Assembly (NCBI GenBank): GCA_016188115.1
Contig: JACPIK010000002.1
Span: 1,395,771-1,459,770 of the forward strand
Source: Candidatus Woesearchaeota archaeon
Lineage (GTDB): Archaea > Nanobdellota > Nanobdellia > Woesearchaeales > GW2011-AR9
Direction: 5' to 3'
Length of the DNA: 64,000 bases
A program made the position numbers and the translations under genes. Positions within the stretch are counted from its first letter, which is position 1. The number at the start of each line of letters is the position of its first letter. This document shows positions 1,725-53,302 of this stretch, piece by piece. The notes beneath the pieces were generated by a model, which did no database searches, was not told where the DNA came from, and saw nothing but the letters and a program-made list of their open reading frames with translations.

Positions 1725-4559
1725 ATGAAAAGAAAAGAGGTTTATGCTGTAACAAAACTAGACAGAGTTCTCTTTCTCTGTTTATTACTCTTAACTCTCC
1801 TTTCTATTTCGGGTCTTGCTGTACCCATAAGGGATACAGTTTGTGAATTAGATGGTTCATTGCGTTGTTCTGCTCCTAATAGTGTCCTTGTTGGCTCAGC
1901 TGGAGCAAATCAGCCTCCTCCGTTTGTGCTAGGATATAATAATCAAGCTGTTAGTATTACCAATGCAGCATACCTCACATTTGAGAACCATCCTTTTGAA
2001 AGTCAAACGGGAAATCTTGCATTATGGTTTAAGTTAGATCCAATCATGGAACCAAGTATCACTGCTCCTGTAAAACTGTTAAAGATTTTTGAAACGGGAA
2101 ACAATCAAAATTATCTTGCTGTTCTCTATAAATCAAATGGGGAGATGGTTGTGCAATCAACTCGCAACGATAACCTCAATGTTCCAGCAAATAAACTACA
2201 ATGGAAATACATTGTCCACAAACCTCTTACTGTTGACGAATGGCATCACTTTACTTTTAGTTGGCAGCGCAACCAAGCAGGTATTCCTGATGATGTAAAA
2301 GTATTCATTGATGGTGAAGAACTGCGAAAGAGTAACTTTGTTTTTGAAGACAGTTCTGGTTTGAGAGCAACCTGGCAGCGAGGACATATTGCTAAATTGC
2401 CCTCTTTATTTCCCAATACGCGAGTTATTATTGCTAAAGGCTCTGCATCTTCAGGAAATACGCTCATAGATCAACTTAGTTTTTCACCAGAATATGTTAC
2501 TGCTGTTTGCCCTTATTGCGAAGTACTTGATGATGTTGTTCTCTATCAAAAACCTCTCTTTACAGATAAAGGGACTTATTCAACACTCCTTCCTTCCACT
2601 AAGCCACAACCCTCTGAGATCATCGAAAGCCTCTCTCTCACTGCAACCCCTGGAGAATATGAACCTACTAGTTTTGCTATTTTTACACAAAATGAACCTC
2701 TTAGAGATGTGACTGCCCAAATATCCTCTTTGAGATCTGCAGCAGGGAATTCTATTCCTATTGAGAATATCGATTTACGAGTTGTAAAAGTGTGGACTCG
2801 TGCTGGATTTGGAGCTAATTCTGCCGCAGGTTTTACATTAGGACAATCCAAACTTCAATGGGACGAATTTGGTATTAATGAAAAAGGCATTCTTGTCGCA
2901 GATATGTTGGTGTATGATGATGGTCAGGATCTAAAAGCATTAGAAAGATATAATCCCGATGGAACCTATACTGCTCCTCGCATAGCCACTCAACTTCGAA
3001 CTACTATTTCCGTTGGAGAATCCAAACAATTTTGGCTCACAATTCATGTTCCTCAAGATACTCCTGCTGGTCATTATCAAGGAGTTATCGCACTCCAAAG
3101 CCCATCTCTTGCAACTCCATTAACAATCCCTCTCTCTATAGAAGTTCTTCCATTCACTCTTGTTGAACCAAATCAAGTTCGCTCTATTTATTACCGCAAT
3201 TATCTTGGTCTAGGGGCTCTTCCTTCTGTGGGCGCTCCCGTATTTGAAAAAATTAGTGAAGAACGATATCGTGCTGAATTATCCGATATACGGGCACATG
3301 GTTTTAACGCAGTTCAGTTAAATTCGCAGCCAATGAGTGAAGAAGGGTTACGTCGTTCGCTTGAATTAGCCCGTAATGTTGGTTTTAGAATAGTTGATCA
3401 AACTGTTGCCAAAGGCGGTCGAGGCATGAGTATTGAAAGACAACTCGAACTCACACAACAGGCAGGTTTTGAGAAAATTCTTTATGCGTTTGATGAAAAA
3501 AATGAATATGCTCAAAACACCTTCGCCAACATTCTTGTTAAACTGTATGATTATCATCAAGCGGGCGCAAAAGTTATGAGTTCTTTAATTTGGCAGACTG
3601 CAGTAGAATATGAAAATCCTCAAAGTGTAATGTATGATCTAGAATATCAAAATGCCCCTTTACGAAACGTACGACCTGAAGTTGTAACCACTGGGCCTGA
3701 TTATGCAGTTATTGCTCTTCCAAATGAAGCGCATGAAGGTCGCGGCTTTGAGCGGTATTTAGATATCATCAATGGACGAGACGCACCAAGAATAAATGCA
3801 AAAGAAATGTATTATTGGCAAATAGGGATGCATAAACCATTTTACGCAAGGTATAATACGGGAGTTCTGGCATATTTCTTACGAAATTATATCTATGGTT
3901 TTAAGCCATATGCGTATTCCCATCAAGGCAGTCCCGGTTTTGGATATGGTTCTCCCTATGACACATTTGATAGTGCGTATATGTACGATGAACTAACTGA
4001 AAAAGGAGACGGGTATGTGGCTTCTCAAATGGCAGTCTATCCTTCAGCGCAAGGGCCAATCCCCACATTAGAATGGGAGGCTGTACGCGAGGGAATTGAT
4101 GATCTCAAATATTTAACAACACTCGACAATGCGTTAACTAGCTTAGAACAACAAGACCCTCGTCTCGCATCTCAACTTCGTGCAGAACTCAATACTGCGT
4201 TAGATCCATTTCGCCATCTAAACTCCTGGCGAATTATGTCGGGGGACGATTTTGACCAGTTACGCACAACCATTATCTCTCTTTTACGTCAAATTCCCGA
4301 ACCTATCTTGACTGCTATAGTTGAAGTGGATAATGTTAATGGTGTTCTAACTCAAAACAATAACAATATCATAGATAAAATAACTCTTGTTCAACAAGAT
4401 TCTCTCCAAGAAAATCAGCAAATCAATCTAGATGTTTGTTTGACATATCCTCAACTCATGCAACTTGCATCTCGTCTTGCTCAACAAGATGCACGCGGGG
4501 AAGATTTAGCCCCCATTAAACGAACCATTTTACGCACGTTTAATCTTGTCTGTTCTTAA
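1725..4559 (+). CDS. large secreted protein with an N-terminal LamG/concanavalin-A-like lectin domain
   Basis: 944 aa. N-terminal signal/TM 'VLFLCLLLLTLLSISGLA'. LamG-like block 'LALWFKLDP...WHHFTFSW...VKVFIDGEEL'. Remainder unassigned. Confidence 0.55.
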   Translation: MKRKEVYAVTKLDRVLFLCLLLLTLLSISGLAVPIRDTVCELDGSLRCSAPNSVLVGSAGANQPPPFVLGYNNQAVSITNAAYLTFENHPFESQTGNLALWFKLDPIMEPSITAPVKLLKIFETGNNQNYLAVLYKSNGEMVVQSTRNDNLNVPANKLQWKYIVHKPLTVDEWHHFTFSWQRNQAGIPDDVKVFIDGEELRKSNFVFEDSSGLRATWQRGHIAKLPSLFPNTRVIIAKGSASSGNTLIDQLSFSPEYVTAVCPYCEVLDDVVLYQKPLFTDKGTYSTLLPSTKPQPSEIIESLSLTATPGEYEPTSFAIFTQNEPLRDVTAQISSLRSAAGNSIPIENIDLRVVKVWTRAGFGANSAAGFTLGQSKLQWDEFGINEKGILVADMLVYDDGQDLKALERYNPDGTYTAPRIATQLRTTISVGESKQFWLTIHVPQDTPAGHYQGVIALQSPSLATPLTIPLSIEVLPFTLVEPNQVRSIYYRNYLGLGALPSVGAPVFEKISEERYRAELSDIRAHGFNAVQLNSQPMSEEGLRRSLELARNVGFRIVDQTVAKGGRGMSIERQLELTQQAGFEKILYAFDEKNEYAQNTFANILVKLYDYHQAGAKVMSSLIWQTAVEYENPQSVMYDLEYQNAPLRNVRPEVVTTGPDYAVIALPNEAHEGRGFERYLDIINGRDAPRINAKEMYYWQIGMHKPFYARYNTGVLAYFLRNYIYGFKPYAYSHQGSPGFGYGSPYDTFDSAYMYDELTEKGDGYVASQMAVYPSAQGPIPTLEWEAVREGIDDLKYLTTLDNALTSLEQQDPRLASQLRAELNTALDPFRHLNSWRIMSGDDFDQLRTTIISLLRQIPEPILTAIVEVDNVNGVLTQNNNNIIDKITLVQQDSLQENQQINLDVCLTYPQLMQLASRLAQQDARGEDLAPIKRTILRTFNLVCS

Positions 4560-4655
4560 TGGCGTGAAACAGTTTAAAACGGGGTATTATTTCTGAACAA
4601 CTCCTCGTTTGTAGAAACCTTTTTAAATAACCCATTATCTTAGCTTGATATTACC

Positions 4656-4964
4656 ATGAAGATCCCAAAAACAATTACTCGTCTTTGTAAGCACTGTAAG
4701 AAGCATACTCAACAAAAAGTTGCTCTCAACAAACGTAAAGCTGCGAGCTCATTAAGTCGTGGCTCAAAAGTTCGATCTCGTTTACGTGGTCTTGCACGTG
4801 GAGTAGGAAGCCATGGACGTTATTCCAAACCTGCCGTTACTAAATTCAAACGTGCTGGTGCAAAGAATACCAAAAAAACTGATATTCGCTACACTTGCAA
4901 TGAATGTAAAAAATCTTCCTGTCAACCTTCTGGAATTCGTTCCAAACGGGTAGAATTAATCTAG
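4656..4964 (+). CDS. rpl44e: 50S ribosomal protein L44e
   Basis: 'MKIPKTITRLCKHCKKHTQQKV...YTCNECKK' is the zinc-ribbon L44e signature. TATA-like 'tttttaaata' about 30 bp upstream. Confidence 0.9.
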   Translation: MKIPKTITRLCKHCKKHTQQKVALNKRKAASSLSRGSKVRSRLRGLARGVGSHGRYSKPAVTKFKRAGAKNTKKTDIRYTCNECKKSSCQPSGIRSKRVELI

Positions 4965-4972
4965 GTGTTACT

Positions 4973-5152
4973 ATGGTTGCTCAATTAAAAAGTAAATTTA
5001 TCAAAGTTCGTTGCTCTAAGTGTAAAAATGAACAAATTATTTTTGGCAATACCAGTACTGTTGTTATGTGCCTTGTTTGCAACAAAGAACTAGCATATCC
5101 TACTGGCGGGAAATCAAAAGTATCTGGTCGCGTGCTCGAACTTTTAGAATAA
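4973..5152 (+). CDS. rps27e: 30S ribosomal protein S27e
   Basis: 59 aa, below the ORF-track cutoff. 'MVAQLKSKFIKVRCSKCKNEQIIFGNTSTVVMCLVCNKELAYPTGGKSK' is the C4 zinc finger typical of S27e. Sits immediately after L44e, as in the conserved archaeal cluster. Confidence 0.85.
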   Translation: MVAQLKSKFIKVRCSKCKNEQIIFGNTSTVVMCLVCNKELAYPTGGKSKVSGRVLELLE

Positions 5153-5253
5153 ATTTATATTTTTTTCAGACTATTTTCTAAGCTATCTTTCTTCTCTTGA
5201 TATAATTAGAATTCTCATAACATTTATAAAGAACGAACTGTCAGACCAATACT

Positions 5254-6042
5254 ATGCTTTACAAGAAAATTGGATATCCTCCTGAAGAAGAGATAGTGCT
5301 TTGTAAAGTCACAAAATTACTTCCTAACTCTGTTTTTGTAGATTTGTTAGAATATGAACAGCGTTCTGGTTTAGTTCATATTTCTGAAGTAGCGCCAGGT
5401 CGTATTCGCAACCTGCGAGACTATGTAAGTCAAGACCGTCAAATTGTATGTAAAGTTCTCAAAGTATACAAAGATCGAGGCCATATTGATCTTTCACTTC
5501 GTCGTGTTAACTCTACTGAACGACGTCAAAAATTAGATGAAATTAAACAGGAACTTAAAGCAGAGCAGCTTCTTGTAAATATTGCTAAGAAGCTAAAACG
5601 ATCTGCTGAAGAAATCTACAAAGAAATCTCCCCTAAAATTTTGAAAGATTATGCTTATATTCATCTTTGTTTTCGTGATATCGTCTCTGGCGAAGTAACT
5701 CTAGAATCCCTTGGCATAAAAAAACAACTTGCCGATGAAATTACTGAAGCCGTAATCGATAAATTCAAGCCGAAAACAATTATTCTTACTGGAGAAATTC
5801 GTCTTTCTACTTTTGCTACTGCTGGTGTTGAAAAAATCAAACAGACCCTTCACTCCATTGAGAAAATCTCTGATACGATCAGTTTATCTTATCTTGGTGC
5901 TGGACGTTATAAACTCACTATTGAAGATTTTGATTACAAACCCGCAGAGCAAACACTCAAAAAAATTCAAGATCTTGTAGAAAAATTCATTGATAAAGTC
6001 TCAACCGGAAGTGTTGAACGCGAGAAAGCGGAACAAACCTAA
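5254..6042 (+). CDS. eif2a: translation initiation factor aIF2 alpha subunit
   Basis: N-terminal S1 domain 'EEEIVLCKVTKLLPNSVFVDLLEYEQRSGLVHISEVAPGRIRNLRDYV', about 260 aa. Third member of the conserved L44e-S27e-aIF2a-Nop10 cluster. Confidence 0.85.
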   Translation: MLYKKIGYPPEEEIVLCKVTKLLPNSVFVDLLEYEQRSGLVHISEVAPGRIRNLRDYVSQDRQIVCKVLKVYKDRGHIDLSLRRVNSTERRQKLDEIKQELKAEQLLVNIAKKLKRSAEEIYKEISPKILKDYAYIHLCFRDIVSGEVTLESLGIKKQLADEITEAVIDKFKPKTIILTGEIRLSTFATAGVEKIKQTLHSIEKISDTISLSYLGAGRYKLTIEDFDYKPAEQTLKKIQDLVEKFIDKVSTGSVEREKAEQT

Positions 6043-6106
6043 TCCTAAGTATAATCATAACTATAACTTACTCTTACTATCCCTCTGCTAAACACTATCT
6101 CCTGCC

Positions 6107-6286
6107 ATGTCCGCAAATATTCTCTTTTGTCCGCATTGTAAAAAGTATACCCTAGAAGAAAAATGTCCTTCTTGTTCTCTTGTCACAATTTTACCTCGAC
6201 CCCCTAAATACTCTGCGCAAGATAAGTATGCTGCCTACCGTCGAGAAGAAAAGAAAAAAGAATTAGCTCAAAAAGGATTGTATTAA
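6107..6286 (+). CDS. nop10: H/ACA ribonucleoprotein component Nop10
   Basis: 59 aa, below the ORF-track cutoff. 'ILFCPHCKKYTLEEKCPSCS...' is the Nop10 zinc ribbon, in the canonical position after aIF2 alpha. Confidence 0.8.
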   Translation: MSANILFCPHCKKYTLEEKCPSCSLVTILPRPPKYSAQDKYAAYRREEKKKELAQKGLY

Positions 6287-6380
6287 TCAAAATAAGATTG
6301 TTTTTTCTTAATTTTCCCTCATTTTCCCTTCTTCACCTCTTTCTGAAAGTTTTATATACCTAACTCACATCAATCTTAAA

Positions 6381-7253
6381 ATGGTGATAGAGAGAGAATT
6401 ACGTTCATTTGATGGGACAAAAATCCATTACGTTTATTCTCAAGGTTCAAAACCCCTCTCACTCGTTTTCGTCCATGGTATTGGTGGTAATTGGACCGTA
6501 TGGCGTAAGGAAATGGAACATTTCCAACGTCGTGGATATTCAACTCTTGCCATTGATATGCGTGGTCACGGCAGTTCAGATATGCCTGACGCATTCTCAA
6601 AATATAAAGTAATGTGCTTTACTCGCGACTTACACAAAGTAATTCAAACGGAAAAAATAAAAAATTTTGTTCTTATCGGTCATAGTATTGGCGGGGCTCT
6701 TTCCATTCATTATTGTATGCATTATCATAAAACTGCGCCTTGTTCTCTTATTCTTGTCGAAGGTACATGCGTATATCCCTTTCAGCGTCATCAACTTTTT
6801 GATTTAGGACCATATGCCACACATCTTTTACATTTTATTGCTAATCACAAACCAACTCGTCAAAAACACTTTTCTCATCTTCCTGATATTGAACTCTCTG
6901 ACAAAGGCGGTCTTTCCAATTTACGTTTACTCTTTCATCTGCTTCATCTAACTCCCATCAAAAGTTTAGTAAAAACAATTGAAAATGTTGAAGAGTTTGC
7001 TTTTAGCAATAAGAGCAAAATATTCACCTCTTTGCGTCATCTCACTATACCCACTCTATTACTCGCTGGGGATCATGATAAAGTCATTCCTCCTAAATAT
7101 TCCTACATTATTAAAGACCTTAAAAAAGATGCAGAAATCAAAATTTTACATAATGCTCAACATCATGTAATCATAGATCATCCTCGTATGGTCAGTCATG
7201 AAATTGAACGGTTTCTCATAGAAAAACAGCTTATTCAAGCTACAAAGCTTTAA
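6381..7253 (+). CDS. alpha/beta-fold hydrolase
   Basis: 'FVHGIGGNW' oxyanion region and 'GHSIGG' nucleophile elbow. Confidence 0.7.
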   Translation: MVIERELRSFDGTKIHYVYSQGSKPLSLVFVHGIGGNWTVWRKEMEHFQRRGYSTLAIDMRGHGSSDMPDAFSKYKVMCFTRDLHKVIQTEKIKNFVLIGHSIGGALSIHYCMHYHKTAPCSLILVEGTCVYPFQRHQLFDLGPYATHLLHFIANHKPTRQKHFSHLPDIELSDKGGLSNLRLLFHLLHLTPIKSLVKTIENVEEFAFSNKSKIFTSLRHLTIPTLLLAGDHDKVIPPKYSYIIKDLKKDAEIKILHNAQHHVIIDHPRMVSHEIERFLIEKQLIQATKL

Positions 7254-8105: not shown

Positions 8106-9620
8106 CTATCCATGATATCTATTCTTAATTTTTGATTGATGGGGATAATCATCAAATCGATATAATGTGATAACTGGTGTTGCTAAATGTGCCATCTTAT
8201 GGCATGTTGCTTTATATCCTTCATTCACCTCTTGAAGTGTTTTCATGACAAGTGTTTCGTATGTTTTTGTGAGAGCAGTTGAAACATTAACTCCCTTCTT
8301 AAGTTGAAATTCAATATGTAATTGCCTATTATGTTTAGCATCAAATTTAGTTGTAAACACAAATGCTCCTGATGTAGTTTGCGCAATTTGTTTGTTGCGA
8401 TAAATACACTCTTCAATATTCTCTGGGTAAATCATAAAAGCATTAAATTTGAGAGGGCCATCTTTTCGTCCTTCAATAAAAAAGAATGGAAGAGGAAGCG
8501 TAATTGTATGATTAATATTAAACTGTTTCAACAACTTTTCCATTTGCCGATAAGAATAAGTCCCACCAATATCTTCTAAATTATATTTTATGACGGGTTG
8601 AGCAGCTTCAGGTAGAATTGTTGTAAACACTAACTCTCGATCTTTATTTGCAAAGACAAACAAATTTAGTGGATATTGAAAGAGCATAGGTGTTTCATCC
8701 ACATCACCAAATATTGCCCGTCGAAACTCATGATTCGCATCAGCTAATTGACGAATAAAAACAGTATCGTCATTTTCAGTTCCACCAAGAATGCCAATGT
8801 CTGATGCACCAAAACCAGATCGCACTTTTGCTCCTCCTGCATTTTTATGAATATATGCTCGCCAACTTTCAGGAAAATCTTCTCCTCCTCCAATAAAATG
8901 AACCTTGTACTTTTTCCAATTGAATTTAAGAGAATTTGCATAATCCACAAAATCTTTGATGAATGGGGGATAACCCGTAATCAAGATTTGCTCAAACTTA
9001 CTTCCAATATCATTAATTGTTTGTAAAATTTCATCTTTATCAGGACCAATATTAATCACTGGGTTATGTCGAGACGCAAACTCGTTAAAATTTAATCCCG
9101 TAACCCAACTTCCTAGAATAAATCCATTAATAATTAATGTTTTTTTGGTATTTACATTAAAATTAAGATCTAACCCTACACTAATTGCATTCTTTCCAAA
9201 GTCGTCTTCTGCATGTGATTTTGCCCAATAACATTGTCTCCCTGAATGACCTGAACTTTTTACAATCATACTAATATTATGATAATCTCCATCAATACAC
9301 ATTGTCGAGAGTTCTTTTGCGCTATATACGTAGCCATGCTTATTCGTTTCGGGAACTTTTGTTAAGAAATCCTGTTTTGTTTTAACACTGCGTGGATCAA
9401 AATTATGTTTTTCTAGAAAATGTTTGTAGTGAGGAATACGTTGCGCGTTAAGTTGAAACGAGTGGATAAGATAGCGTTCTTGTAATGTTTCAACAAACTC
9501 CGGTTCAAGATCAAGAAATTGTGCTTTGAATGCTTCGTAATCTTTGCCTTGCTTTTGCAACTGTTTATGCACCATAGAAAAAGGTAAATTTCTTATTAGT
9601 GCATGCTTAATACGTCCCAT
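8106..9620 (-). CDS. adenylate-forming enzyme of the ANL superfamily (PaaK / F390-synthetase / GH3-like acyl-acid ligase)
   Basis: 504 aa. P-loop-like 'KSSGHSGRQ' (compare SSGTTGKP / SSGTSxGxxK), then 'FGASDIGILGGTE' (YGxTE-like) and 'YNLEDIGG' (YRxGD-like) at the expected spacing. Its start codon overlaps the panD stop ('TAATG'). Confidence 0.5.
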   Translation of the reverse strand: MGRIKHALIRNLPFSMVHKQLQKQGKDYEAFKAQFLDLEPEFVETLQERYLIHSFQLNAQRIPHYKHFLEKHNFDPRSVKTKQDFLTKVPETNKHGYVYSAKELSTMCIDGDYHNISMIVKSSGHSGRQCYWAKSHAEDDFGKNAISVGLDLNFNVNTKKTLIINGFILGSWVTGLNFNEFASRHNPVINIGPDKDEILQTINDIGSKFEQILITGYPPFIKDFVDYANSLKFNWKKYKVHFIGGGEDFPESWRAYIHKNAGGAKVRSGFGASDIGILGGTENDDTVFIRQLADANHEFRRAIFGDVDETPMLFQYPLNLFVFANKDRELVFTTILPEAAQPVIKYNLEDIGGTYSYRQMEKLLKQFNINHTITLPLPFFFIEGRKDGPLKFNAFMIYPENIEECIYRNKQIAQTTSGAFVFTTKFDAKHNRQLHIEFQLKKGVNVSTALTKTYETLVMKTLQEVNEGYKATCHKMAHLATPVITLYRFDDYPHQSKIKNRYHG

Positions 9621-9970
9621 TATAAGTACCGTTCAAATTTATTTTTCTTGTCAACAAGAATACACTTTGGTTTAATAGGTTTGTTGGTAATCTCAAACGC
9701 CATTATAATTATTTCATGTCCTTTCTTAATCAAATGAGAGCACGCGCCATTCATGCAAATAACACCTGAGTTTTTCGGACCAGCAATGGTATATGTCTCG
9801 AGTCGAGCACCAGTGGTGTTGCTCGTTACCAGCACTTTTTCACCAGGCCAGATATTGGCTTTTTTGAGCAAGACTTCATCAATCGTGATACTGCCAATGT
9901 AATGCAGCTTTGCCTCAGTGACTGTAGCTTTATGGATTTTAGATTTAAGAACGATGCGCATGAAAATCAA
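9620..9970 (-). CDS. panD: aspartate 1-decarboxylase, pyruvoyl-dependent (PanD)
   Basis: '[23 protein letters not shown]' contains the Gly-Ser self-cleavage site. '[10 protein letters not shown]', '[14 protein letters not shown]' and 'GHEIIIMAF' align with bacterial PanD. Confidence 0.85.
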
Positions 9971-10075
9971 CCTCTCTTTACAAATAAGGGCCTTGTACTG
10001 TTAAAAACATTCTTCACTATTATTGGGGGGTGAAAGTTCAAAATATTTATATACCAGTCCCAATTTAACCATTTT

Positions 10076-11983
10076 ATGCCTATTTTCAATGTGGGGGCTG
10101 CGCTAGCACCACGAGAGTCATTTGATGGACTTATCGAGAAATACGGTTCTCCCACGTTGAATGCTCCTCAAGTCGATATTGAGAATGCGGTAGCTCATCG
10201 AACATGGTTAGCATTAGCAAAATACGTTGAATTTCTCAACCCACAGTTCCTCAATGGCTTGTTTCAAGGAATAGAACTTCCTACTCAAGGGATGAGTATT
10301 GATGAACATGTTTTTCCTCCTACAGTTGATCGTGTTCTTTCCGCTCAAGCACGTCAAGCCTATGCTATTTTAGAACTGAACCCTCGTCATTTTGGCAGTG
10401 TCGAAACTCGACTTAAGTTATTTGACAATTTAGTCCGCACTACTAATGATCCTCTTGCATGTTTTAATGCAGGTCGTAGTGTTCGTGTTGTTCCAGATCT
10501 AAATCCTCTACGAGCCGGATTTCTTGACATCCAAAAAGGATTAGCAAAAGCATTTGGCGCTAATCCAGGCAAATTACTTGAAAGCAGACTCGAACCAGCT
10601 AATGCTGCGCTTAATAGATTTCTTAGCGTGAGTGGAGCAGGATATGGGGGCAATTACCTTAACATTCGTGTTGAATATTTCCCTGGTTGTGACATCTCTC
10701 CATTAGGTGATCAATATACTTTGGGTGTACTTGTTGCAGGATTGGAACAAATCGCAGCATATAAAAAATTAGAAATTCGCTGCATCCAATCACCATTTGA
10801 TCCTCAGACAGAAAGACAAAAATTAGGGTTAGCTACTCGCGGCGTTGAGTATGACTTGAGTAATTATCATCAAACTAACGGCCCTGTTTTTATCTATCGT
10901 TTAGAATATCATGAAAAAGCAGAGTGGTTCAACCGTATCGGACGTGCCATCGTTGATTTTTCCCGACGTCATATCCCTTCTCGTCAATCAAAAGCAGTAC
11001 TAACTTCGCAAGAAGCAGTAATGCGACTGTTAACCAGCGAAAGACAAGCAGACGAAGCGCGAGAAGCAGGATATAGGTCTACTCTTGCTGCCGCCGTTGC
11101 CCGTGCCGATGCCGCCGAAGCAGAAAGAGAAGCAGAATCCCAACGTAGTGCCGCATTAGAAGCGCAACTTGAAAATGCTCGTATGGTTGCACGTAACCAA
11201 GAAGTAGGGGAATATCTTCGCACTTCTATTCATGATATCATCAATGCGTTTAATGTAGTTCGAGCTGAATTAATCACTACGGGGGGAGCAGTATTAAAAT
11301 CTCTATATTCTCCCGCGGAGGAAATTTTGCCTTCCAATCTTGTTGAAGATAAACGGTCATTGAGAGAAATTGTATCTCCATTATTAGAAGATTCTGTTGA
11401 AAGCATAGTCCGATCTTATGCATCCCATCTTGTAGATCAAGTTCAAGCAATAGATGAACAAGTTCTACGTCTTCGTCAGGTTATGAAACCAGAATCCGTT
11501 GCTCAAGTAACTGATGTTGCTTATGGTCAATCGATTGATCGTGTAATCAAAAAAGTAAGAACTCGGTTTCCTTCTGCAACTATTGAATACTCTTCCCCAG
11601 ATGATTCACATACTGTAAGTGTTAATGGAAATTTATTGGAGATGGTTTTATTCAATTTAGTTAATAATGCCATAGAAGGCTGTGTTGAAAATGGTTATGA
11701 CTCAAATCTTCGTATTCACTGTAGCACCCTAGATAGAGAGGACCATTATCGAGAGCGCATTATCATTTATCAGCAAGCTCCTATTCCTGAAAATATTTTA
11801 GGGGATCTTAACGCTGGGGTTGCCAAGAGTTCAAAAGGTGATAAAGGAAGTGCCGTAGGTGCTAGCAGCAGTCGTAAAATGGTGGTTGATGTGATGGGCG
11901 GAGATCTTCGTTGGCAAAGTCCAGTAAAAGCAGCAGGATATGGAGCAGCAACAGTTATAGAATTATATAGTAAAGATAAATAA
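10076..11983 (+). CDS. soluble histidine-kinase-like protein: novel N-terminal domain, Ala/Arg-rich coiled coil, H-box and HATPase_c
   Basis: H-box-like 'YLRTSIHDIINAFNVV'. ATPase N-box 'LEMVLFNLVNNAIEG', G-rich 'GDKGSAVGASSS', C-terminal 'VIELY'. No TM segments. GC is visibly higher than in the flanking genes. Confidence 0.55.
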   Translation: MPIFNVGAALAPRESFDGLIEKYGSPTLNAPQVDIENAVAHRTWLALAKYVEFLNPQFLNGLFQGIELPTQGMSIDEHVFPPTVDRVLSAQARQAYAILELNPRHFGSVETRLKLFDNLVRTTNDPLACFNAGRSVRVVPDLNPLRAGFLDIQKGLAKAFGANPGKLLESRLEPANAALNRFLSVSGAGYGGNYLNIRVEYFPGCDISPLGDQYTLGVLVAGLEQIAAYKKLEIRCIQSPFDPQTERQKLGLATRGVEYDLSNYHQTNGPVFIYRLEYHEKAEWFNRIGRAIVDFSRRHIPSRQSKAVLTSQEAVMRLLTSERQADEAREAGYRSTLAAAVARADAAEAEREAESQRSAALEAQLENARMVARNQEVGEYLRTSIHDIINAFNVVRAELITTGGAVLKSLYSPAEEILPSNLVEDKRSLREIVSPLLEDSVESIVRSYASHLVDQVQAIDEQVLRLRQVMKPESVAQVTDVAYGQSIDRVIKKVRTRFPSATIEYSSPDDSHTVSVNGNLLEMVLFNLVNNAIEGCVENGYDSNLRIHCSTLDREDHYRERIIIYQQAPIPENILGDLNAGVAKSSKGDKGSAVGASSSRKMVVDVMGGDLRWQSPVKAAGYGAATVIELYSKDK

Positions 11984-12003
11984 AAAAAGAGAGAAATTAA
12001 AAT

Positions 12004-12663
12004 TTAAATATCGTCTCCTTGTCCTTGTAGGCGATCTTCTAAATTTCTCACCCAACTAGGGTTAAGAATTCGGATCGGCGAATTAGGTAATGGATTTTTA
12101 GCAAGAAGTGCGTTATAATGTCGTTCTGCATCTTGCACCAGCTGTGCCACAGTTTGACCGTATGTCACTGTTCTGTCTGATCCTGGAACGCCATGTTTCT
12201 TGCGGTATGTTACATCAATCCCTTCGATACCTACTACTTTTCCAACGGCACGAGCTGGGTTTCCATTTGCGTCAAGAACTGTTCCTTCTTTCACTGCTCC
12301 GACATTCAAAATTCTCGTAGCATCAGTTGTAACAAATGAAAGTAAGTAAAGACCTAAACGAGTCTGTGACGGCTTATGTTTTTGTGACTCGTAGAGTTTT
12401 ACTAATTCTGAACCTAATAAACGTGCTGCTTCAACACCATCTCCCATTCCAACTCTTCCTTGCGGATCAATATGGACATCATAAATAAACATTGAACCTG
12501 GTTGAATTGTTTGTATGAATTTTTCAGGATGATATGCATTAGCTAAAGGAAGGGGCACTACTCTAACATTTAATGGAGAAAGTGCTCTATCTGCATCCTC
12601 GACTCTTGCTGCTTCATTTTCTAACATATATACATTTTGTATTGTAGCCATATTAATCACCAA
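12004..12663 (-). CDS. hypothetical protein, paralog A of a tandem pair
   Basis: 219 aa. Shares 'HIDPQGRVGMGDGVEAA...KLYE...LSFVTTD...NPSWVRN' blocks with the adjacent gene. Confidence 0.5.
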   Translation of the reverse strand: MVINMATIQNVYMLENEAARVEDADRALSPLNVRVVPLPLANAYHPEKFIQTIQPGSMFIYDVHIDPQGRVGMGDGVEAARLLGSELVKLYESQKHKPSQTRLGLYLLSFVTTDATRILNVGAVKEGTVLDANGNPARAVGKVVGIEGIDVTYRKKHGVPGSDRTVTYGQTVAQLVQDAERHYNALLAKNPLPNSPIRILNPSWVRNLEDRLQGQGDDI

Positions 12664-12678
12664 TTGATTTCTATTACT

Positions 12679-13326
12679 TCAAACACTATCATCTGCTTTC
12701 ATTCTATTCATCCATCCTGGATTACAGTAACGTAAATTCTGGGGTTCTTCTAATTTTCCTTCTCTGATCGCAGTATAAAATCGATCTAAATCTTCTGCAA
12801 TTTCTCTAACGCCTACCTCATAAGGAACAACACTTCCATTTCGGTCAAACCCTTTTTGTCGGAAGAATACCTCTGCTCCAGCTAAATTTGCAACACGCCC
12901 ATTCACAGGTGCATTTTTCCCATCTGGTAAACGACCAAGATAGTCGATTTCTGTTCCAGCAGGAGCATTAAAAATCGCATAAGGATTCGTAGTAACAAAA
13001 ACTAACGCTAACGGAGAAATTCGTTCGTCAAAGATTGTTGGGTCGCGCGGGTCTTCTTCATATAATTTTTGGAGACGTCGCGTAATGCTCTCAGCAGCAT
13101 CTAACCCCGTCACGCCATCGCCTTGTTCTATATGGTAATCAACAATGGCAATCCCTTTCCCAATAATACTTGACCCTAACAAAACCCGGGGATCATCTCT
13201 TACTGCACGCAGGTTATACGCTTCGATAGCCAAATCGCCGTGGCTTACAGTAGTTTGCAATCTCCTCACAAGATCTACATTATCTTCAAGAACACACAAC
13301 CGATCTAAAGTTCGAAACGTTGACAT
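12679..13326 (-). CDS. hypothetical protein, paralog B of a tandem pair
   Basis: 215 aa. 'HIEQGDGVTGLDAA...KLYEED...LVFVTTN...NPGWMNR' is collinear with paralog A. Confidence 0.5.
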   Translation of the reverse strand: MSTFRTLDRLCVLEDNVDLVRRLQTTVSHGDLAIEAYNLRAVRDDPRVLLGSSIIGKGIAIVDYHIEQGDGVTGLDAAESITRRLQKLYEEDPRDPTIFDERISPLALVFVTTNPYAIFNAPAGTEIDYLGRLPDGKNAPVNGRVANLAGAEVFFRQKGFDRNGSVVPYEVGVREIAEDLDRFYTAIREGKLEEPQNLRYCNPGWMNRMKADDSV

Positions 13327-13392
13327 TTACTACTGAAAAATAAGAAAAAAGTATATAAACACTTATATTCTATAAAATATAGGTTAAAAAAT

Positions 13393-14193
13393 CTATTTCA
13401 CACTAATCGTCACAACATCGCCATCAACACTGGCTCCTCGTGTTGTTCCTTCTAGTTTAAATACGGCATCCCCAGAACCAACAACCATTGAACCAGTGAA
13501 ATAATACACTGCTGCTTTCTCGTTAACCAAATTATACGTTAACTTACCTCCTACCGAAAGAGTCCCATCACCAGCAGGCATTACCACATCTTTGAGAGCA
13601 ACGTGACCAACATCTAATTTCTTAAATGTTAAATCAGAAATAACAATCTCCATATCTCTGCCTGACTCCAACGCAACACCATTCACACCAATGCGACGTG
13701 CTTTTCCTGCAAGAGATAATGAAGAGCCACTTAACACAAAGTCTCCTTCAAAATCGCCAATATCTAACGTAACACCCTGTAAATTATTCAACTCTAACCG
13801 ATCATTATTAACTTGGATAGAGGTTGTTAAATCGTCAAACACTAATTCCATTTGTTTTACACTCACTTTCTTGGAAAGAGCAGGAACTTTATTAAACGAC
13901 AACGTGACTGGAACATCACGAGTACCTCGTGAGACTTCTTGTTTAAACACTTTCTCTAAAGGATTATCATCAGTAGATACACTGCTAAATTCTTCTGCCT
14001 CTTGGCTATCACCAAATAATGTTGATCCTGATTTAGAAGGTGAACTCTCTTCAGATCTGGTATCACTTATGGCTCCACCGGTAATGGTTCCATCTTTGAA
14101 CACAAACAGTAACGCTACCGCACCAAGCACAATGATACCCATTACTATGTAGAATTTGATATTGGAATCCTTTTTAGGATATTTATCGTACAT
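13393..14193 (-). CDS. N-terminally membrane-anchored extracellular beta-rich protein
   Basis: One TM 'FYIVMGIIVLGAVALLFVF' followed by a Ser/Thr/Gly/Val-rich ectodomain. Confidence 0.45.
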   Translation of the reverse strand: MYDKYPKKDSNIKFYIVMGIIVLGAVALLFVFKDGTITGGAISDTRSEESSPSKSGSTLFGDSQEAEEFSSVSTDDNPLEKVFKQEVSRGTRDVPVTLSFNKVPALSKKVSVKQMELVFDDLTTSIQVNNDRLELNNLQGVTLDIGDFEGDFVLSGSSLSLAGKARRIGVNGVALESGRDMEIVISDLTFKKLDVGHVALKDVVMPAGDGTLSVGGKLTYNLVNEKAAVYYFTGSMVVGSGDAVFKLEGTTRGASVDGDVVTISVK

Positions 14194-26847: not shown

Positions 26848-28155
26848 TCAATCTAAGTTATCGATGTTTTTAGCTAGTGCATTTAATCCTCTTAACAGAT
26901 CATCATAAGTGTAAAAAGATACTTCCCCCAGATTCCTTGATTTAAACTCTCTTAGTTTCTCCTGTTCATAATCTTTTTCACAACCCATAATCAGAACACC
27001 TTTAACTCGGTTTATATCTTCTACTTTTAGATTACCTATTCCTTTTAGAACGGCTGATTTTTCATCACTTACTAAGTGAATCCAATTGTTCACTTGATCT
27101 AGTGCGTGTTGCATTTCTCTCTTTGTTTCACCATTTTTCTTCATTATTTGGAATGAAGGTTTTTCAATTTCTATAAGAAGAAGATCTTTCCTGTTTGTTA
27201 CTATACAAAAGTCAGTTTTATACTTACTCAAGATAGGCATTTTGTTATAAATCATCTCTGGCGAAAAAAGACTTAGTATTAATGTATTCCTTTCAATAAA
27301 TTTTTGAACTTCTTCTTCTCCAGGGTTACTTTCTATTAATAGTTTAAATGCATCAATTATTTTAATTATTGAAGCTTTTGTATAATAATTCTGTGCAGAT
27401 ATAATTTTTTGACTGCCATTTTTGACTTTTCCTAATAAAGCGTGAAAGTTTTCACGTATGTATTTGAGACTAAATGAAGAATTCCTACACTTACAAGAGA
27501 AAATATCTGGTAAATCCTCAAACCAGATATCTCCTTTTTCCTCAAATACTTTATCTCTCTCTAAACCTACATAAATCTTAAGTTCTGCTTTGCAGTTTTT
27601 ACAACCAAGTTGAATTGCTATTTTCTTTGAGATGGCGGGGTCAGCTTTTAGAGCAGCAATCCTCTCTTTACTTAAGGGGGGAACTTTTTGATAATGAAAA
27701 GTAACTGACCCGATTGGGATTTTTTCACCATCTTGTTCTAAAAAAATATTAAGTGTCGTCGGTTCGGATAAAATTATATCCTTCTCGAAGTCGCAGAGGA
27801 AAAGCGACCAACCCGTAGTTAAATCTCGAACTTTAATTGAAAAAGTATTTCCCCTATCAACGTTTAAATTTCTTTTATTGATTCCTTGTTCGTGATATTT
27901 TAAAGACATTTTTTGAATTAGAAGTCCGTTCTGATCCAAAAATTCTAGATTTGTATCTTTTAAATTTTTAACGTCATAAATCGCGAATACTAATTTTTTA
28001 AATTCTTTAAGATTTATAGGAAAGATGAGACAAAAACAGTTAGAGTTAATACCTATTAAATTGTGGTACCAACTTCTATAATCTCCCTCTCTAATCGACT
28101 CTCCTTTCTCACACAAACCTAAGAAAGCTACTCTGGGAATAATATTACTGCTCAT
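26848..28155 (-). CDS. AT-rich hypothetical protein with a C-terminal PD-(D/E)xK-like nuclease signature (possible DUF4263 / Shedu-like)
   Basis: C-terminal 'KTDFCIVTNRKDLLLIEIEKP...QHALDQVNNW' reads as a D...E-x-K-type core. Internal CxxC...CxC 'CKNCKAEL...CKCRN'. Composition is distinctly more AT-rich than the flanking uppS and mutL. Confidence 0.3.
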   Translation of the reverse strand: MSSNIIPRVAFLGLCEKGESIREGDYRSWYHNLIGINSNCFCLIFPINLKEFKKLVFAIYDVKNLKDTNLEFLDQNGLLIQKMSLKYHEQGINKRNLNVDRGNTFSIKVRDLTTGWSLFLCDFEKDIILSEPTTLNIFLEQDGEKIPIGSVTFHYQKVPPLSKERIAALKADPAISKKIAIQLGCKNCKAELKIYVGLERDKVFEEKGDIWFEDLPDIFSCKCRNSSFSLKYIRENFHALLGKVKNGSQKIISAQNYYTKASIIKIIDAFKLLIESNPGEEEVQKFIERNTLILSLFSPEMIYNKMPILSKYKTDFCIVTNRKDLLLIEIEKPSFQIMKKNGETKREMQHALDQVNNWIHLVSDEKSAVLKGIGNLKVEDINRVKGVLIMGCEKDYEQEKLREFKSRNLGEVSFYTYDDLLRGLNALAKNIDNLD

Positions 28156-28238: not shown

Positions 28239-30047
28239 ATGCCTACAATTCATGTTCTTAGCGAAGACGTCATCAATAAAATTGCAGCAGGCGAAGTTAT
28301 TGAACGGCCTGCATCCGTAGTCAAAGAGTTAGTAGAAAACTCCATCGATGCTGGTGCAACCAAAATCACGGTTGACATTGAAAATGTAGGCAGAGATCTC
28401 ATCTGCATCACTGACAATGGGTCAGGTATGAATTCAGAAGATGCAAAACTCTCCATCATTCGACATGCAACGAGTAAGTTAAGTACAGCAGACGATCTTT
28501 TCAACATTCAATCGCTTGGATTTCGTGGAGAAGCTCTCGCTTCTATTGCTGCTGTAAGTACTCTTTCCATTTCGACAAAACAAAAGAAAAACATCGAAGG
28601 CTACATGATCACCATTCGTGGTGGTACGATTCAAAAAGAAGGTTCATGTGCTCACGAGCAAGGCACAACTATTGAAGTAAAATCACTTTTTTTCAATACA
28701 CCGGCGCGTCTCAAATTTCTCAAAACCGATGCCGTGGAATTGCGCCATATCATTGATGTAGTAACCCAATATGCATTGATTCATCCCGAAATCTCTTTCA
28801 CTCTTACTCACAATAACTCCTCTCTTATCGAGGCACCTAAAGTCGAAGATCTACGCCAACGCATTGCGTTTCTCTATGGTGTATCAATAGCCAAAGATTT
28901 AGTACCTATTCAAACCAAGGGTGATGGCTTTACTCTAAACGGTTTTTTAGGCACACCAATGCAATCACGTAATGACAAAGCGCAACAGGCTTTGTATGTT
29001 AACAAACGCTGGATTAAGAATACTGATTTACGTGATGCTGTGTATGAAGGATATCATTCGATGTTGTTTCATGGTAAACATCCGATCTTTGTGTTAGACA
29101 TCGAACTCGATGCTCAACGTATTGATGTTAATATCCATCCCCAGAAATCAGAGATCAAAATCGAACAGCGTGATGAGATTTGCAGTGCGATTACGCAAGC
29201 GGTTAAACACGCACTTTCAACGAATAATCTTATTCCTGATGTGACGCCACGGTTTGAAAATGTTAGTGGATTTTCTAAACCAAGCAAGTACTCATTTGAA
29301 AAAGCAACGCAACAAGTATTGCCGATTGAGAGAGAAGAAAGAACACGATCAATTCCACAAGTAAAAGAAAGTGCCGCAGTCTATCAACAAGACTCAGACT
29401 CTTCCTCTGCTCCTAGTTCCATTAGCAATTTTCCATTTACCTCATCTCCTGCTGAGTTTCATTCTTCTCTTCCTACAATGCGTTTGTTAGGTCAAATTCA
29501 CAAAACATTCTTTGTTGCCGAAAGTGATGGTGGAGCATATTTTATCGATCAACATGCGGCACACGAACGAGTACTCTACGAGGAATTGATGGGCGATCTC
29601 ACTTTGGGTCAAATTGCACCGCAAGTATTGCTTCAAGCAGCAGTAATCGATCTCGCCCCACGGGATGTTCCCATTGTGACACAGCATCTTTCTTTCTTAC
29701 ATCAGCTTGGTTTTACACTCGAATCATTTGGAACCAATAGTTTTTCACTCAAAACGCTTCCGAGTATCTTTGGTCGACAGCAACCTAAAGAACTCTTTGC
29801 TGACATGTTGGGCATTCTGCAAGAAGAAGGGAAAAACACGTTGGAGAAACTACGTGAAACTATTCTCACTCGTATGGCTTGTCGTGCTGCCGTGATGGCG
29901 GGTGATCCAGTCACCATCCCCGAAATGGAATTGATCCTACATCAACTTTCTCAAACCCAACATCCCTATACCTGTCCCCATGGCCGTCCAACGGTGATTA
30001 GAGTGAGCGCAGAAGAGCTCGAGAAGAAGTTTAAAAGGAAAGGGTAA
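28239..30047 (+). CDS. mutL: DNA mismatch repair protein MutL
   Basis: GHKL ATPase N-terminus 'KIAAGEVIERPASVVKELVENSIDAGAT', 'GFRGEALASI', and a C-terminal dimerisation/endonuclease region. Confidence 0.85.
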   Translation: MPTIHVLSEDVINKIAAGEVIERPASVVKELVENSIDAGATKITVDIENVGRDLICITDNGSGMNSEDAKLSIIRHATSKLSTADDLFNIQSLGFRGEALASIAAVSTLSISTKQKKNIEGYMITIRGGTIQKEGSCAHEQGTTIEVKSLFFNTPARLKFLKTDAVELRHIIDVVTQYALIHPEISFTLTHNNSSLIEAPKVEDLRQRIAFLYGVSIAKDLVPIQTKGDGFTLNGFLGTPMQSRNDKAQQALYVNKRWIKNTDLRDAVYEGYHSMLFHGKHPIFVLDIELDAQRIDVNIHPQKSEIKIEQRDEICSAITQAVKHALSTNNLIPDVTPRFENVSGFSKPSKYSFEKATQQVLPIEREERTRSIPQVKESAAVYQQDSDSSSAPSSISNFPFTSSPAEFHSSLPTMRLLGQIHKTFFVAESDGGAYFIDQHAAHERVLYEELMGDLTLGQIAPQVLLQAAVIDLAPRDVPIVTQHLSFLHQLGFTLESFGTNSFSLKTLPSIFGRQQPKELFADMLGILQEEGKNTLEKLRETILTRMACRAAVMAGDPVTIPEMELILHQLSQTQHPYTCPHGRPTVIRVSAEELEKKFKRKG

Positions 30048-51909: not shown

Positions 51910-52347
51910 TTAGTTTTTTGCTAAATATAAACTCAATAACCCTTCTAAAACATTTTTTCCAGTTAAATTTAATTGTCGCATAAATTGTATCATTGTCTGC
52001 TCATCACATTGGCCATAAAGAACATTTTTTGGAATAAATCCCGCAGCTCCAGCATTTTGCCAAAGTCGGATATACTGATCTCTCTCTGAGCTATTACTCA
52101 TACCATAAACTGGGGTATGTATCTTTTTCTCCCGTACTCTTTGACAAACGTCATATCCGTTCATTATGGGCATTTCTGTATCAACAAAAGCAAGATCTGG
52201 AAGAGTACTCTGACCAAAATAATTCAATCCCTCTTCTGCAGATTTTGCGCATTGAACATCAATACTTGAATCAAAAGACCTTCGAATCACCCTTGGAAGA
52301 ATTACATGTACATCAGGATCATCGTCTACAATGAGGACTATAGACAT
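51910..52347 (-). CDS. stand-alone response regulator receiver (CheY-like)
   Basis: 'IVLIVDDDPD', 'AFVDTEMP' (phospho-acceptor Asp) and a conserved Lys region. Confidence 0.7.
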   Translation of the reverse strand: MSIVLIVDDDPDVHVILPRVIRRSFDSSIDVQCAKSAEEGLNYFGQSTLPDLAFVDTEMPIMNGYDVCQRVREKKIHTPVYGMSNSSERDQYIRLWQNAGAAGFIPKNVLYGQCDEQTMIQFMRQLNLTGKNVLEGLLSLYLAKN

Positions 52348-52392: not shown

Positions 52393-52881
52393 TCAGCAGT
52401 TTTTGACTTCTTCAACTAACAATGCTTGTTCCGTGCAGATTTGTTCTTCATCAAAAGGAGTAATTTTTGGCACGATTTCAATTTGCTCTACTGCGCCATT
52501 TTCTTTAAGATTATACACAATTTTACCTCGATACGTTCCTGCTTTAGGCATCTTTGCTTTAACAAGATCTTCTGACTGAGAACCATCCTCACCTATAATA
52601 TTAACTATCAATCCCTCAACTTTAGAATTCTTGCCATTTTTAACGGTAAATTGTATTGTCTTGGTCTTTGTATCATAACAAACATGTTCTTTTCCTTTCA
52701 CCATGGCTAATGCTAATCCAACTTCAACTGGACATTCCGCTTCTTCTTCTACTTGAGCACTTCCTAAATTCATTACGACTACGCCTACAGCTACTGCAAA
52801 AGAAACTAGTAAAAACGTCGCAATGATCGGCGTAAGCGCTTTCTTATGCACTCTGCGGTGCTTTCCAATAGGTTTGACCAT
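52393..52881 (-). CDS. archaeal type IV pilin-like protein (class III signal peptide)
   Basis: 'KKALTPIIATFLLVSFAVAVGVVV' resembles the [KR][GA][ILV][ST]P..ATV.L prepilin peptidase motif. Followed by a beta-rich domain. Confidence 0.55.
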   Translation of the reverse strand: MVKPIGKHRRVHKKALTPIIATFLLVSFAVAVGVVVMNLGSAQVEEEAECPVEVGLALAMVKGKEHVCYDTKTKTIQFTVKNGKNSKVEGLIVNIIGEDGSQSEDLVKAKMPKAGTYRGKIVYNLKENGAVEQIEIVPKITPFDEEQICTEQALLVEEVKNC

Positions 52882-53302
52882 TATGTGTTATCTCTTTAAT
52901 TCTATTTGCTGGTATAAATATTTCTCCGCCCTGTCCAACAAACACAAGGAAATCTTTTTCAAGCTTCTTAAGATTATGTGCTGGTAGATTAACTATTTTA
53001 TTGCTAGCTTTATCCAAATAAGTGACAGAAAGTTCTTGTCTTGAAGGATGTCTGTGTATCCGATCGTAAATAATCTCTCCTTGTTTAATCTCATCAAGGG
53101 GAGTAACATCTTTAAAGATAAAACTTGAAAGAGTTAGCATTAATACTCCTACTCCTAAACTAACCAATGGGTTTGCTAAATACCCTATGTTTCCCACTCC
53201 ATCCCACAGTCCTGTCCAAAAAAAAACGACACCCATCACTCCGAAAAGGAACCAAAAGTACTTCTTCACTTTCTCAGTATGTAAGACCATCATGCCCTCC
53301 AA
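52844..53302 (-). CDS. membrane protein, paralog 1 (two TM + conserved C-terminal domain)
   Basis: Collinear with the next gene: 'FIPANRIKEITHNGQTYW' versus 'FIPIHRVKKIFQNDKIYW'. Confidence 0.45.
   Translation of the reverse strand: MEGMMVLHTEKVKKYFWFLFGVMGVVFFWTGLWDGVGNIGYLANPLVSLGVGVLMLTLSSFIFKDVTPLDEIKQGEIIYDRIHRHPSRQELSVTYLDKASNKIVNLPAHNLKKLEKDFLVFVGQGGEIFIPANRIKEITHNGQTYWKAPQSA

Follow-up and report, generated by a model that had tools for sequence, protein, structure and literature searches.

Do four adjacent genes on a Candidatus Woesearchaeota chromosome make up one acquired signalling system, or are they native neighbours? The genes lie in the 64,000-nucleotide stretch of DNA analysed here (the window), at 10076-11983 on the forward strand and at 12004-12663, 12679-13326 and 13393-14193 on the reverse strand. 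The initial annotation had described these four open reading frames correctly, with two paralogs on the opposite strand converging on a kinase-like gene, and had read them as an acquired, self-contained module. The evidence assembled here leads us to favour, with some reserve, a native, vertically inherited and fast-evolving slot in which a divergent cytoplasmic sensor histidine kinase lies beside a lineage-specific orphan operon.

Gene layout and expression signals

The slot adjoins a panD/PaaK-like operon on one side and a conserved membrane-protein gene and rpS15 on the other. Its features, together with a receiver gene located elsewhere in the window, are the following.

10041-10054, forward strand: TATA-like promoter element of the kinase gene (AAATATTTATATAC), located 22-35 nt ahead of its start codon (ATG)
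10076-11005, forward strand: N-terminal domain of the kinase-like protein, residues 1-310; lineage-specific, no Pfam, NCBIfam or PDB match
11006-11200, forward strand: helical linker that may form a coiled coil, residues 311-375, rich in Ala, Glu and Arg (18 Ala, 10 Glu and 9 Arg in 65 residues)
11231-11233, forward strand: codon of His386 (SIHDIINAF), the putative phospho-acceptor of a DHp-like helix, set in an H-D-x-x-N motif immediately following the linker
11630-11938, forward strand: HATPase_c catalytic domain, residues 519-621, from the Pfam match and the alignment to ThkA
12004-12651, reverse strand: parA (215 aa, annotated product P0001), which follows parB in their operon
12657-12662, reverse strand: GGTGA Shine-Dalgarno-like motif of parA, seen in the sequence
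12679-13326, reverse strand: parB, 215 aa, first gene of the operon, a parA paralog by BLASTP and Smith-Waterman alignment
13351-13364, reverse strand: TATA-like element of parB-parA, about 25-38 nt ahead of the start codon (ATG) of parB; reverse complement AAGTGTTTATATAC
13393-14193, reverse strand: 266-aa single-pass membrane protein, one transmembrane helix at residues 14-32 (KD 2.82)
51910-52347, reverse strand: stand-alone CheY-like receiver (Response_reg, E=6.7e-18)

The short distance between the kinase TATA-like element and the ATG implies a leaderless or near-leaderless mRNA, and the parB element is an inverted copy of this promoter element (inverted repeat I11). The parA reading frame runs to 12663; its true start is likely the ATG at 12651, which gives 215 aa, and a run of seven T follows its stop codon. 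Because the paralog genes have a TATA-like element of their own and a Shine-Dalgarno motif before parA, and because they are oriented convergently to the kinase gene across a gap of 20 nt, parB-parA appears to be a separate operon rather than a demonstrated set of kinase partners.

A divergent, soluble histidine-kinase-like protein

The 635-aa protein has no transmembrane segment (maximum KD19 1.10) and is soluble, as had been proposed. The H-box and HATPase_c region recognised at first sight are also there: the HATPase_c model scores 24.9 bits (E=3e-5) on the full-length protein, just under the Pfam gathering score of 26.4, and passes that cutoff with 27.8 bits (E=3.7e-6) on the isolated C-terminus (residues 371-635, 265 aa). 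In PDB, histidine kinases are the top matches, with ThkA (3a0r, E=2.7e-4) as the best structural match, and NCBIfam histidine-kinase families match at E 7e-5 to 1e-2, both sets of matches reaching upstream into the region of DHp helix 2. We found no match to HisKA/DHp-type Pfam models, either in the full-length protein or in the C-terminus. Searches of Pfam, NCBIfam and PDB gave no match to the N-terminal ~300 aa, which upholds the earlier view that this domain stands outside known families.

The overall plan, with an input domain, a linker, a His helix and HATPase_c, is shared with archaeal cytoplasmic sensor histidine kinases and with ThkA (3a0r/3a0t, Thermotoga maritima). The N-box, whose Asn is the Mg-ATP ligand, is intact (NLVNNAIEG, residues 527-535) and aligns with that of ThkA; the H-D-x-x-N context around the His is likewise shared. 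At the G2 box, which forms the ATP lid, a G2-like GSAVGAS at residue 591 aligns to GTGLGLS of ThkA, with the first and third Gly kept. The protein differs from these kinases in its N-domain, which has no match among known sensor domains such as PAS or GAF, in its lack of a HisKA match, in an insert of roughly 40 residues between the two DHp helices, and in its G1 box, the adenine contact, where DxGxG is absent and YQQAPIP stands at residues 565-571, so that the Asp and both Gly are lost. As QQAPIP replaces the G1 box, ATP binding may be impaired. A further difference is that its core evolves faster than its input domain.

This last point comes from the only syntenic relative found, L003, another Woesearchaeota with about 68% protein identity in the flanks. 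In L003, an ortholog of the kinase-like protein occupies the corresponding position and is preceded by the same TATA element (TGTTTATATAC). The N-domain is 27% identical between the two (E=9e-22; Smith-Waterman z=34), compared with z=4.9 for the kinase core and z=2.4 for its CA part alone. For the linker, L003 has a segment of similar composition, yet the alignment score is no higher than for shuffles. Conservation is thus highest in the N-domain, whereas sensor kinases usually show the opposite pattern; this is an unusual point, made on two species only. Few residues of the C-terminal half are conserved with L003, and His386 and the Asn-Asn of the N-box are among them. Next to the His, the Ile at position -1 and the Asn at +4 are kept as well (VIHGLANL), the residue after the His being Gly in L003 and not an acid.

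One alternative is that the 635-aa protein is a pseudokinase, or a generic protein of the GHKL fold, whose N-terminal domain is the part that matters. The loss of the Asp and both Gly from the G1 box would fit this, as would a C-terminal half that is barely alignable between the orthologs next to a clearly conserved N-domain, and HATPase_c scores that are marginal in both species (15.9-17.9 bits in L003). We nevertheless regard this alternative as unlikely, since the His, the Asn-Asn of the N-box and an SSKG segment before G2 have all been kept in the L003 ortholog where DNA similarity is gone, and since that ortholog retains a canonical G1 box, DNGKGM. Moreover, ThkA, presumably an active kinase, has NSGPPIPEE at the very place where our protein aligns as QQA-PIPEN, so that PIPE(N) at G1 is common to the two. 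Given a HATPase_c domain that passes its cutoff, matches that are histidine kinases, a conserved His386 and Asn-Asn, and the lack of a transmembrane segment, the protein is best described, from its sequence, as a divergent soluble histidine-kinase-like protein, with predicted kinase activity and His386 as its putative phospho-acceptor.

Ancient paralogs of a lineage-specific family

That the two smaller proteins are tandem paralogs is borne out by BLASTP (E=2e-13, 30% identity) and by a Smith-Waterman score of 148, against 32+/-5 for shuffles. The sequence blocks that they had been said to share are present, except that the NPxW block had been misread at its final residue. Identity by codon position is 0.48/0.57/0.32, and different codons are used at 38 of the 62 identical residues; this is the pattern of an old duplication maintained by purifying selection.

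Neither protein has a match in Pfam, NCBIfam, PADLOC, PHROGs or PDB, nor in viral or JGI metagenome contigs, and a search of 5.8 billion clusters returned self matches only. A profile search against 1.84 billion representatives recovered nothing beyond the paralogs themselves and a single repeat-protein artefact. Consistent with the suggestion of an unknown family, no housekeeping family was matched in these database searches. AlphaFold2 models of parA and parB are unusable (mean pLDDT 35 and 39), and Foldseek with these low-confidence models gave no match at an E of 0.001 or better. parA and parB may form a heterodimer.

In having no homolog outside one population, together with native codons and ordinary expression signals, parA and parB resemble the orphan (ORFan) families of DPANN genomes. 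They differ from ORFans in that they go back to an old tandem duplication under purifying selection, and are neither spurious nor newly arisen. They therefore appear to be real, selected proteins that arose by an ancient tandem duplication and occur in this lineage only, and they illustrate the extent of protein space in DPANN genomes that is under selection and yet unclassifiable.

Receivers and a possible phosphorelay

The stand-alone receiver at 51910-52347 had been named as the only response regulator in the window, and indeed it alone among 604 open reading frames matches a REC profile. Its conserved Asp, Asp and Lys align with those of CheY, Spo0F and other receivers. It sits 40 kb from the kinase gene, to which we found no link, and is a possible partner.

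If the protein is an active kinase, its ~300-aa N-domain would be the presumed input, joined by the ~65-aa Ala/Glu/Arg helical linker to the DHp-like helix and then to HATPase_c. The protein would dimerise via its helical region, a cytoplasmic cue sensed by the N-domain would alter autophosphorylation on His386, and a stand-alone receiver whose gene lies elsewhere, such as that at 51910-52347, would then take over the phosphoryl group. In archaeal two-component systems, which are rare in DPANN, cytosolic sensors and stand-alone receivers are the prevailing components (PMC5847659, Galperin et al. 2018); an active kinase would add one more such sensor to DPANN, with an undescribed input domain.

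Could the paralogs themselves be the receivers? The kinase gene and its neighbours would then encode one phosphorelay with highly atypical receivers, similar to Detocs, which consists of a cytoplasmic kinase (DtcA) and two receiver proteins, the buffer receiver DtcB and the receiver-effector DtcC (bioRxiv 10.1101/2023.01.24.525353). The likeness lies in a cytoplasmic kinase with a non-membrane sensor and two smaller related proteins encoded by adjacent genes. Both paralogs also show candidate residues in the order expected of a receiver: an acidic pair (MLENE/VLEDN) preceded by a hydrophobic strand, a strand with Asp at its end (IYDVHI/IVDYHI) and GDGV behind it, a hydrophobic strand that closes with TT (FVTTD/FVTTN), and a Lys in YRKKHG/FRQKG. 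Both HMMER and hhalign set residues 57-72 of parB on the receiver beta3-Asp segment.

This resemblance is without statistical support. Hhalign against a 7-sequence REC alignment gave parA and parB a probability of 0.1-0.2%, and HMMER with --max gave -0.9 bits. The paralogs fall outside the top 16 of the 604 open reading frames against the REC profile, no better than random ones, and Response_reg has no match at E up to 10; their assignment as REC domains (PF00072) is not supported. Receiver-residue spacings in CheY are 44/30/22, and the candidate spacings in the paralogs are about 47/49/43 residues; the motif spacing exceeds the canonical one by at least 20 residues, and the part expected to form helix 4 looks non-helical in the low-confidence AlphaFold2 models.

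The paralogs are thus not demonstrable receivers, and no effector domain was found in them with Pfam or NCBIfam. Unlike Detocs, the genes are convergent, with a separate promoter for the paralogs, instead of forming one operon; they are archaeal and known from one species, and no paralogs lie beside the L003 ortholog. With an E limit of 1, none of the four proteins had a match in PADLOC, in a release from which Detocs models may be absent. The resemblance comes down to gene count and layout, and a common phosphorelay seems improbable to us.

Comparison with the syntenic region of L003

Similarity in blastn to L003 stops at 10054, at the kinase TATA-like element, and resumes at 13389. The block in between, 10055-13388, has sharp edges, and nowhere else in the 19-kb syntenic region is DNA similarity lacking over so long a distance; its flanks have 68-77% DNA identity, and flanking proteins are 45-98% identical to those of L003. 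Downstream of the kinase gene, L003 carries, in place of the paralogs, an unrelated 304-aa gene that has a Shine-Dalgarno motif of its own and is probably co-transcribed with the kinase gene. Synteny of the kinase with the paralog pair therefore does not recur in this one relative, where the kinase is kept without them.

Such a picture could be expected of a variable hotspot, for instance in defence or host interaction, where cargo genes would be traded between conserved flanks, with a conserved sensor and swappable downstream effectors: the dissimilar stretch is sharply bounded, the genes downstream of the kinase are wholly different in the two species, and a Shedu gene lies 13 kb from the block. 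Yet the comparison covers only two species, and considerable turnover would be normal in any case between genomes with a flank identity of about 68%. The locus also has no PHROGs match to add to the PADLOC result, codon usage is native, and neither tRNAs, integrase genes in the flanks nor direct repeats at the boundaries were found. The second type of cassette, that of L003, shows no variation between the two available assemblies, but these share 99.96% identity. We consider a hotspot of this kind improbable. There is a similarly slim chance that the kinase-like protein represents a new Woesearchaeota-specific family in which the conserved N-terminal domain does the work and the downstream partners are interchangeable (parB-parA here, the 304-aa protein in L003), in a modular, rapidly diversifying signalling or defence cassette where parA and parB would be non-canonical phospho-acceptors or effectors.

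The fourth gene encodes a membrane-anchored protein, as first described. It has no family match in Pfam or NCBIfam and is 66% identical to its L003 ortholog; it belongs to the conserved flank outside the variable block and is an unrelated neighbour of the kinase. The idea of a self-contained module is not supported, with parB-parA convergent and under its own promoter, a kinase in L003 that does without the paralogs, and the membrane protein in the conserved flank. We found no sign that the four genes act together, and annotation should keep them apart rather than present them as a single system.

Composition and the question of acquisition

The locus had also been described as a higher-GC island with GC-richer codon usage, consistent with acquisition. 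The GC content of the four genes is 0.39-0.42, against a mean of 0.387+/-0.032 for genes in the window (z no more than 1.1), and other 1-kb windows equal or exceed the GC of the locus. GC3 is not raised (0.22-0.29, window mean 0.294), and the synonymous-codon likelihoods of the four genes give z values of -0.05, 0.16, -0.57 and -0.71, all within 0.71 standard deviations of the window mean; by GC3 and codon usage, the genes do not differ from the average, which refutes the description. The kinase and the paralogs have a raised fraction of Ala, Gly, Arg and Pro (z 1.5-1.9), and the small rise in GC is explained by this richness.

A horizontally acquired, GC-richer island is accordingly very improbable: 1-kb windows show a GC slightly higher than average (0.40-0.41), a local GCC-rich run exists and the paralogs are missing from L003, but GC3 lies at or below the window mean with typical synonymous usage, the GC rise follows from amino acid content, only the paralogs are absent from L003 while the kinase and the membrane protein both have positional orthologs there, and donor-like homologs were found nowhere in database searches. 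Typical GC3 and synonymous usage, and a kinase ortholog found in L003 at the corresponding site, downstream of the same TATA element, argue instead for native, vertical origin of the slot; together with the lack of a tRNA, an integrase or a flanking repeat, they speak against acquisition, and the reading as an acquired signalling island should be dropped. The GC-rich codon run that had been quoted from the kinase gene, GCCGCCGTTGCCCGTGCC, is present at 11090-11107, in the linker.

A divergent kinase-like protein beside orphan genes

The 635-aa product of the gene at 10076-11983 is most likely, judged from its sequence, a new and very divergent sensor histidine kinase whose input domain is undescribed, and orphan genes adjoin it. 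The four open reading frames lie exactly where the initial annotation had placed them:

10041-10054: TATA-like element (AAATATTTATATAC), 22-35 nt upstream of the kinase ATG
10076-11983 (+): kinase-like protein, 635 aa, with residues 1-310 as the N-domain
12004-12651 (-): parA, one of two tandem 215-aa paralogs
12679-13326 (-): parB, the other paralog
13351-13364: TATA-like element of parB, an inverted copy, ~25-38 nt upstream of the parB ATG
13393-14193 (-): single-pass membrane protein, 266 aa

The initial annotation had described the kinase-like protein as lacking a membrane segment, which was borne out, and as carrying an H-box and an HATPase_c region. This reading holds, with His386 present within SIHDIINAF, accompanied by an N-box (NLVNNAIEG). 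HATPase_c narrowly missed the Pfam cutoff of 26.4 bits on the full-length protein (24.9 bits, E=3e-5), and passed it when residues 371-635 were scanned alone (27.8 bits). The top PDB matches were histidine kinases, among them ThkA (3a0r, E=2.7e-4), with the alignment spanning DHp helix 2 and the catalytic domain, and a dozen histidine-kinase models of NCBIfam matched the HATPase_c region weakly. Residues 311-375 form a helical stretch rich in Ala, Glu and Arg. A Pfam HDC match at residues 534-605 was dismissed, being below its cutoff and overlapping the HATPase_c region.

Searches for relatives of the kinase are less trustworthy, because candidates saturated the word-indexed search (at least 8000) and the search with the kinase-ortholog alignment returned zero matches, missing even its own two input proteins, which are present in the collection; the latter negative is therefore unreliable. 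Pattern scans for the N-domain in JGI metagenomes and IMG/VR, with two short patterns each, were negative.

The kinase-like gene in a syntenic relative

Scanning with rpS15, a neighbouring gene, yielded a sole syntenic relative, the locus L003 of Woesearchaeota isolate nzgw60 (S15 85% identical). Exact-protein look-ups of conserved neighbours added only members of the same population or an assembly sharing 99.96% identity with L003, and synteny is absent from a more distant relative, L004. Flanking orthologs in L003 are 45-98% identical, most of them between 51% and 85%. DNA similarity of 68-77% extends until window position 10054, where the TATA element ends, and is back at 13389, where the membrane-protein gene stops; the membrane protein, 66% identical in L003, belongs to the conserved flank. 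Within the gap, L003 holds the following genes:

3817-5910: kinase ortholog, 697 aa, with the same TATA element ahead
5981-6895 (+): 304-aa gene, co-directional with the kinase ortholog and occupying the position of the paralogs

The N-terminal 300 aa of the L003 protein are homologous to the window kinase (27% identity, E=9e-22, Smith-Waterman z=34). Its C-terminal half retains only the His, the Asn-Asn of the N-box, a G1 box in canonical form (DNGKGM) and an SSKG segment; HATPase_c matched it with E=0.004-0.018, and Smith-Waterman comparison of the orthologs gave z=4.9 for the DHp/catalytic half and z=2.4 for CA alone. A profile of the two orthologs performed worse against PDB than the single sequence. 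The N-domain is far better kept between the orthologs than the kinase core, the reverse of the usual sensor-kinase pattern.

That the 635-aa protein might be a pseudokinase seems unlikely to us, yet this explanation retains weight because the G1 box is lost (degenerate, QQAPIP), no HisKA model matches the protein, and the core is, unusually, less conserved than the N-domain. The reading as a divergent cytoplasmic sensor kinase remains the most likely one; such a kinase is predicted to signal to a stand-alone receiver, and the one at 51910-52347 would be a candidate partner. A cytoplasmic sensor with a stand-alone receiver is the typical archaeal arrangement (PMC5847659).

The 304-aa gene of L003 has a GGTGAT ribosome-binding site 5 nt before its ATG and a T-rich terminator past its stop, and is probably co-transcribed with the kinase ortholog; its product had zero matches in Pfam or PHROGs. 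Homology between the paralogs and this 304/308-aa gene was considered for look-alike motifs (LMVEDNAEVLAR, LLCDVHI) and rejected, as BLASTP, hhalign and Smith-Waterman shuffles were all negative.

Origin of the locus

The comparison of the two loci places the kinase-like gene at this site already in the common ancestor of both species. The codon usage is also native: the four genes have a GC3 of 0.22-0.29, versus a window mean of 0.294, and their synonymous usage is not unusual (codon likelihood z-scores -0.71 to 0.16). Total GC is modestly up (z no more than 1.1) because of codon positions 1 and 2, reflecting an Ala/Gly/Arg/Pro-rich composition (z 1.5-1.9). The observations of the initial annotation thus stood for the reading frames, the kinase features and the paralogy, but not for GC-richer codon usage; the GCC codon run that it quoted is real but local. 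With an ancestral position and native codon usage, the kinase-like gene does not belong to an acquired island.

The proposal of a self-contained module fares no better. No parA or parB lies downstream of the kinase ortholog in L003, and the paralogs have expression signals of their own, so that the proposal reduces to adjacency alone. Of the earlier interpretation, the divergent kinase and the orphan paralogs are supported, and acquisition and the module are not.

Two orphan paralogs in their own operon

The 215-aa products of parA and parB are clear paralogs, as had been proposed (Smith-Waterman score 148 versus 32+/-5 for shuffles). Between the two genes, the first, second and third codon positions agree in fractions of 0.48, 0.57 and 0.32, and among the 62 residues that are identical, 38 are encoded by different codons. 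This pattern points to an old duplication on which purifying selection is acting, and parA and parB are therefore both real genes. They converge on the kinase gene with a gap of 20 nt. Since parB has its own TATA-like element and GGTGA precedes parA, parB-parA forms its own operon, separate from the upstream membrane-protein gene too. The TATA-like elements of the kinase and parB are inverted copies (repeat I11, 86% complementary) that bracket the variable block almost exactly; promoter consensus alone may account for the likeness.

A word-indexed search of 5.8 billion clusters found only the paralogs themselves, and full HMMER with a parA+parB profile, run over 1.84 billion representatives, recovered just the pair itself and a single repeat-protein artefact. 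There were zero matches in Pfam, NCBIfam, PADLOC, PHROGs and PDB, none in IMG/VR, JGI metagenomes or plasmids (tblastn), and comparison with the kinase protein was negative as well; an Rfam search found nothing. By these searches parA and parB are lineage-specific. Being soluble, selected and co-transcribed, the two paralogs plausibly form a heterodimer.

Motifs read by eye, with receiver-like residues in the right order, suggested that the paralogs could be aberrant receiver domains, implying a Detocs-like system, but we give this a low probability, as hhalign, HMMER --max, a Pfam scan with matches allowed to E 10 and a ranking of the paralogs against all ORFs lent it no support, and structure tests were uninformative for a receiver fold (AlphaFold2 on two-sequence alignments gave pLDDT 35 and 39 for parA and parB, and Foldseek of these models against PDB gave noise only).

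Genomic neighbourhood

The surroundings are ordinary chromosomal genes, with locus tags of the HYV86 series on a 1.47-Mb contig of Candidatus Woesearchaeota archaeon:

One flank, in order: L44e, S27e, eIF2-alpha, Nop10; two alpha/beta hydrolases; a PaaK-like ligase overlapping panD
Beyond the four genes: rpS15, a GT2 glycosyltransferase, an XPD helicase

The panD gene (Asp_decarbox E=9e-40) forms a pair at 8106-9970 (-) with the gene of a 504-aa protein, one base (9620) being common to both. The 504-aa protein is only remotely like PaaK-type adenylate-forming ligases (TIGR02155 E=3.9e-7, far under cutoff). The pair is kept in L003 (1786-3684; 95% and 69% identity) and may activate beta-alanine, an unusual capacity, if so, for a DPANN archaeon.

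A 435-aa protein at 26848-28155 (-) carries a Shedu SduA_C nuclease domain (Pfam E=6.5e-19). Its gene, immediately upstream of mutL (28239-30047), has a clearly low GC (0.313, z -2.3) and makes a stronger case for an acquired defence gene than do the four genes at 10076-14193. Near the stand-alone receiver, and two genes downstream of an Orn/DAP/Arg decarboxylase gene, lie two adjoining, slightly overlapping genes at 52844-53736 (-), whose 148-152-aa products both contain an MJ1316 domain (RNA cyclic-end recognition).
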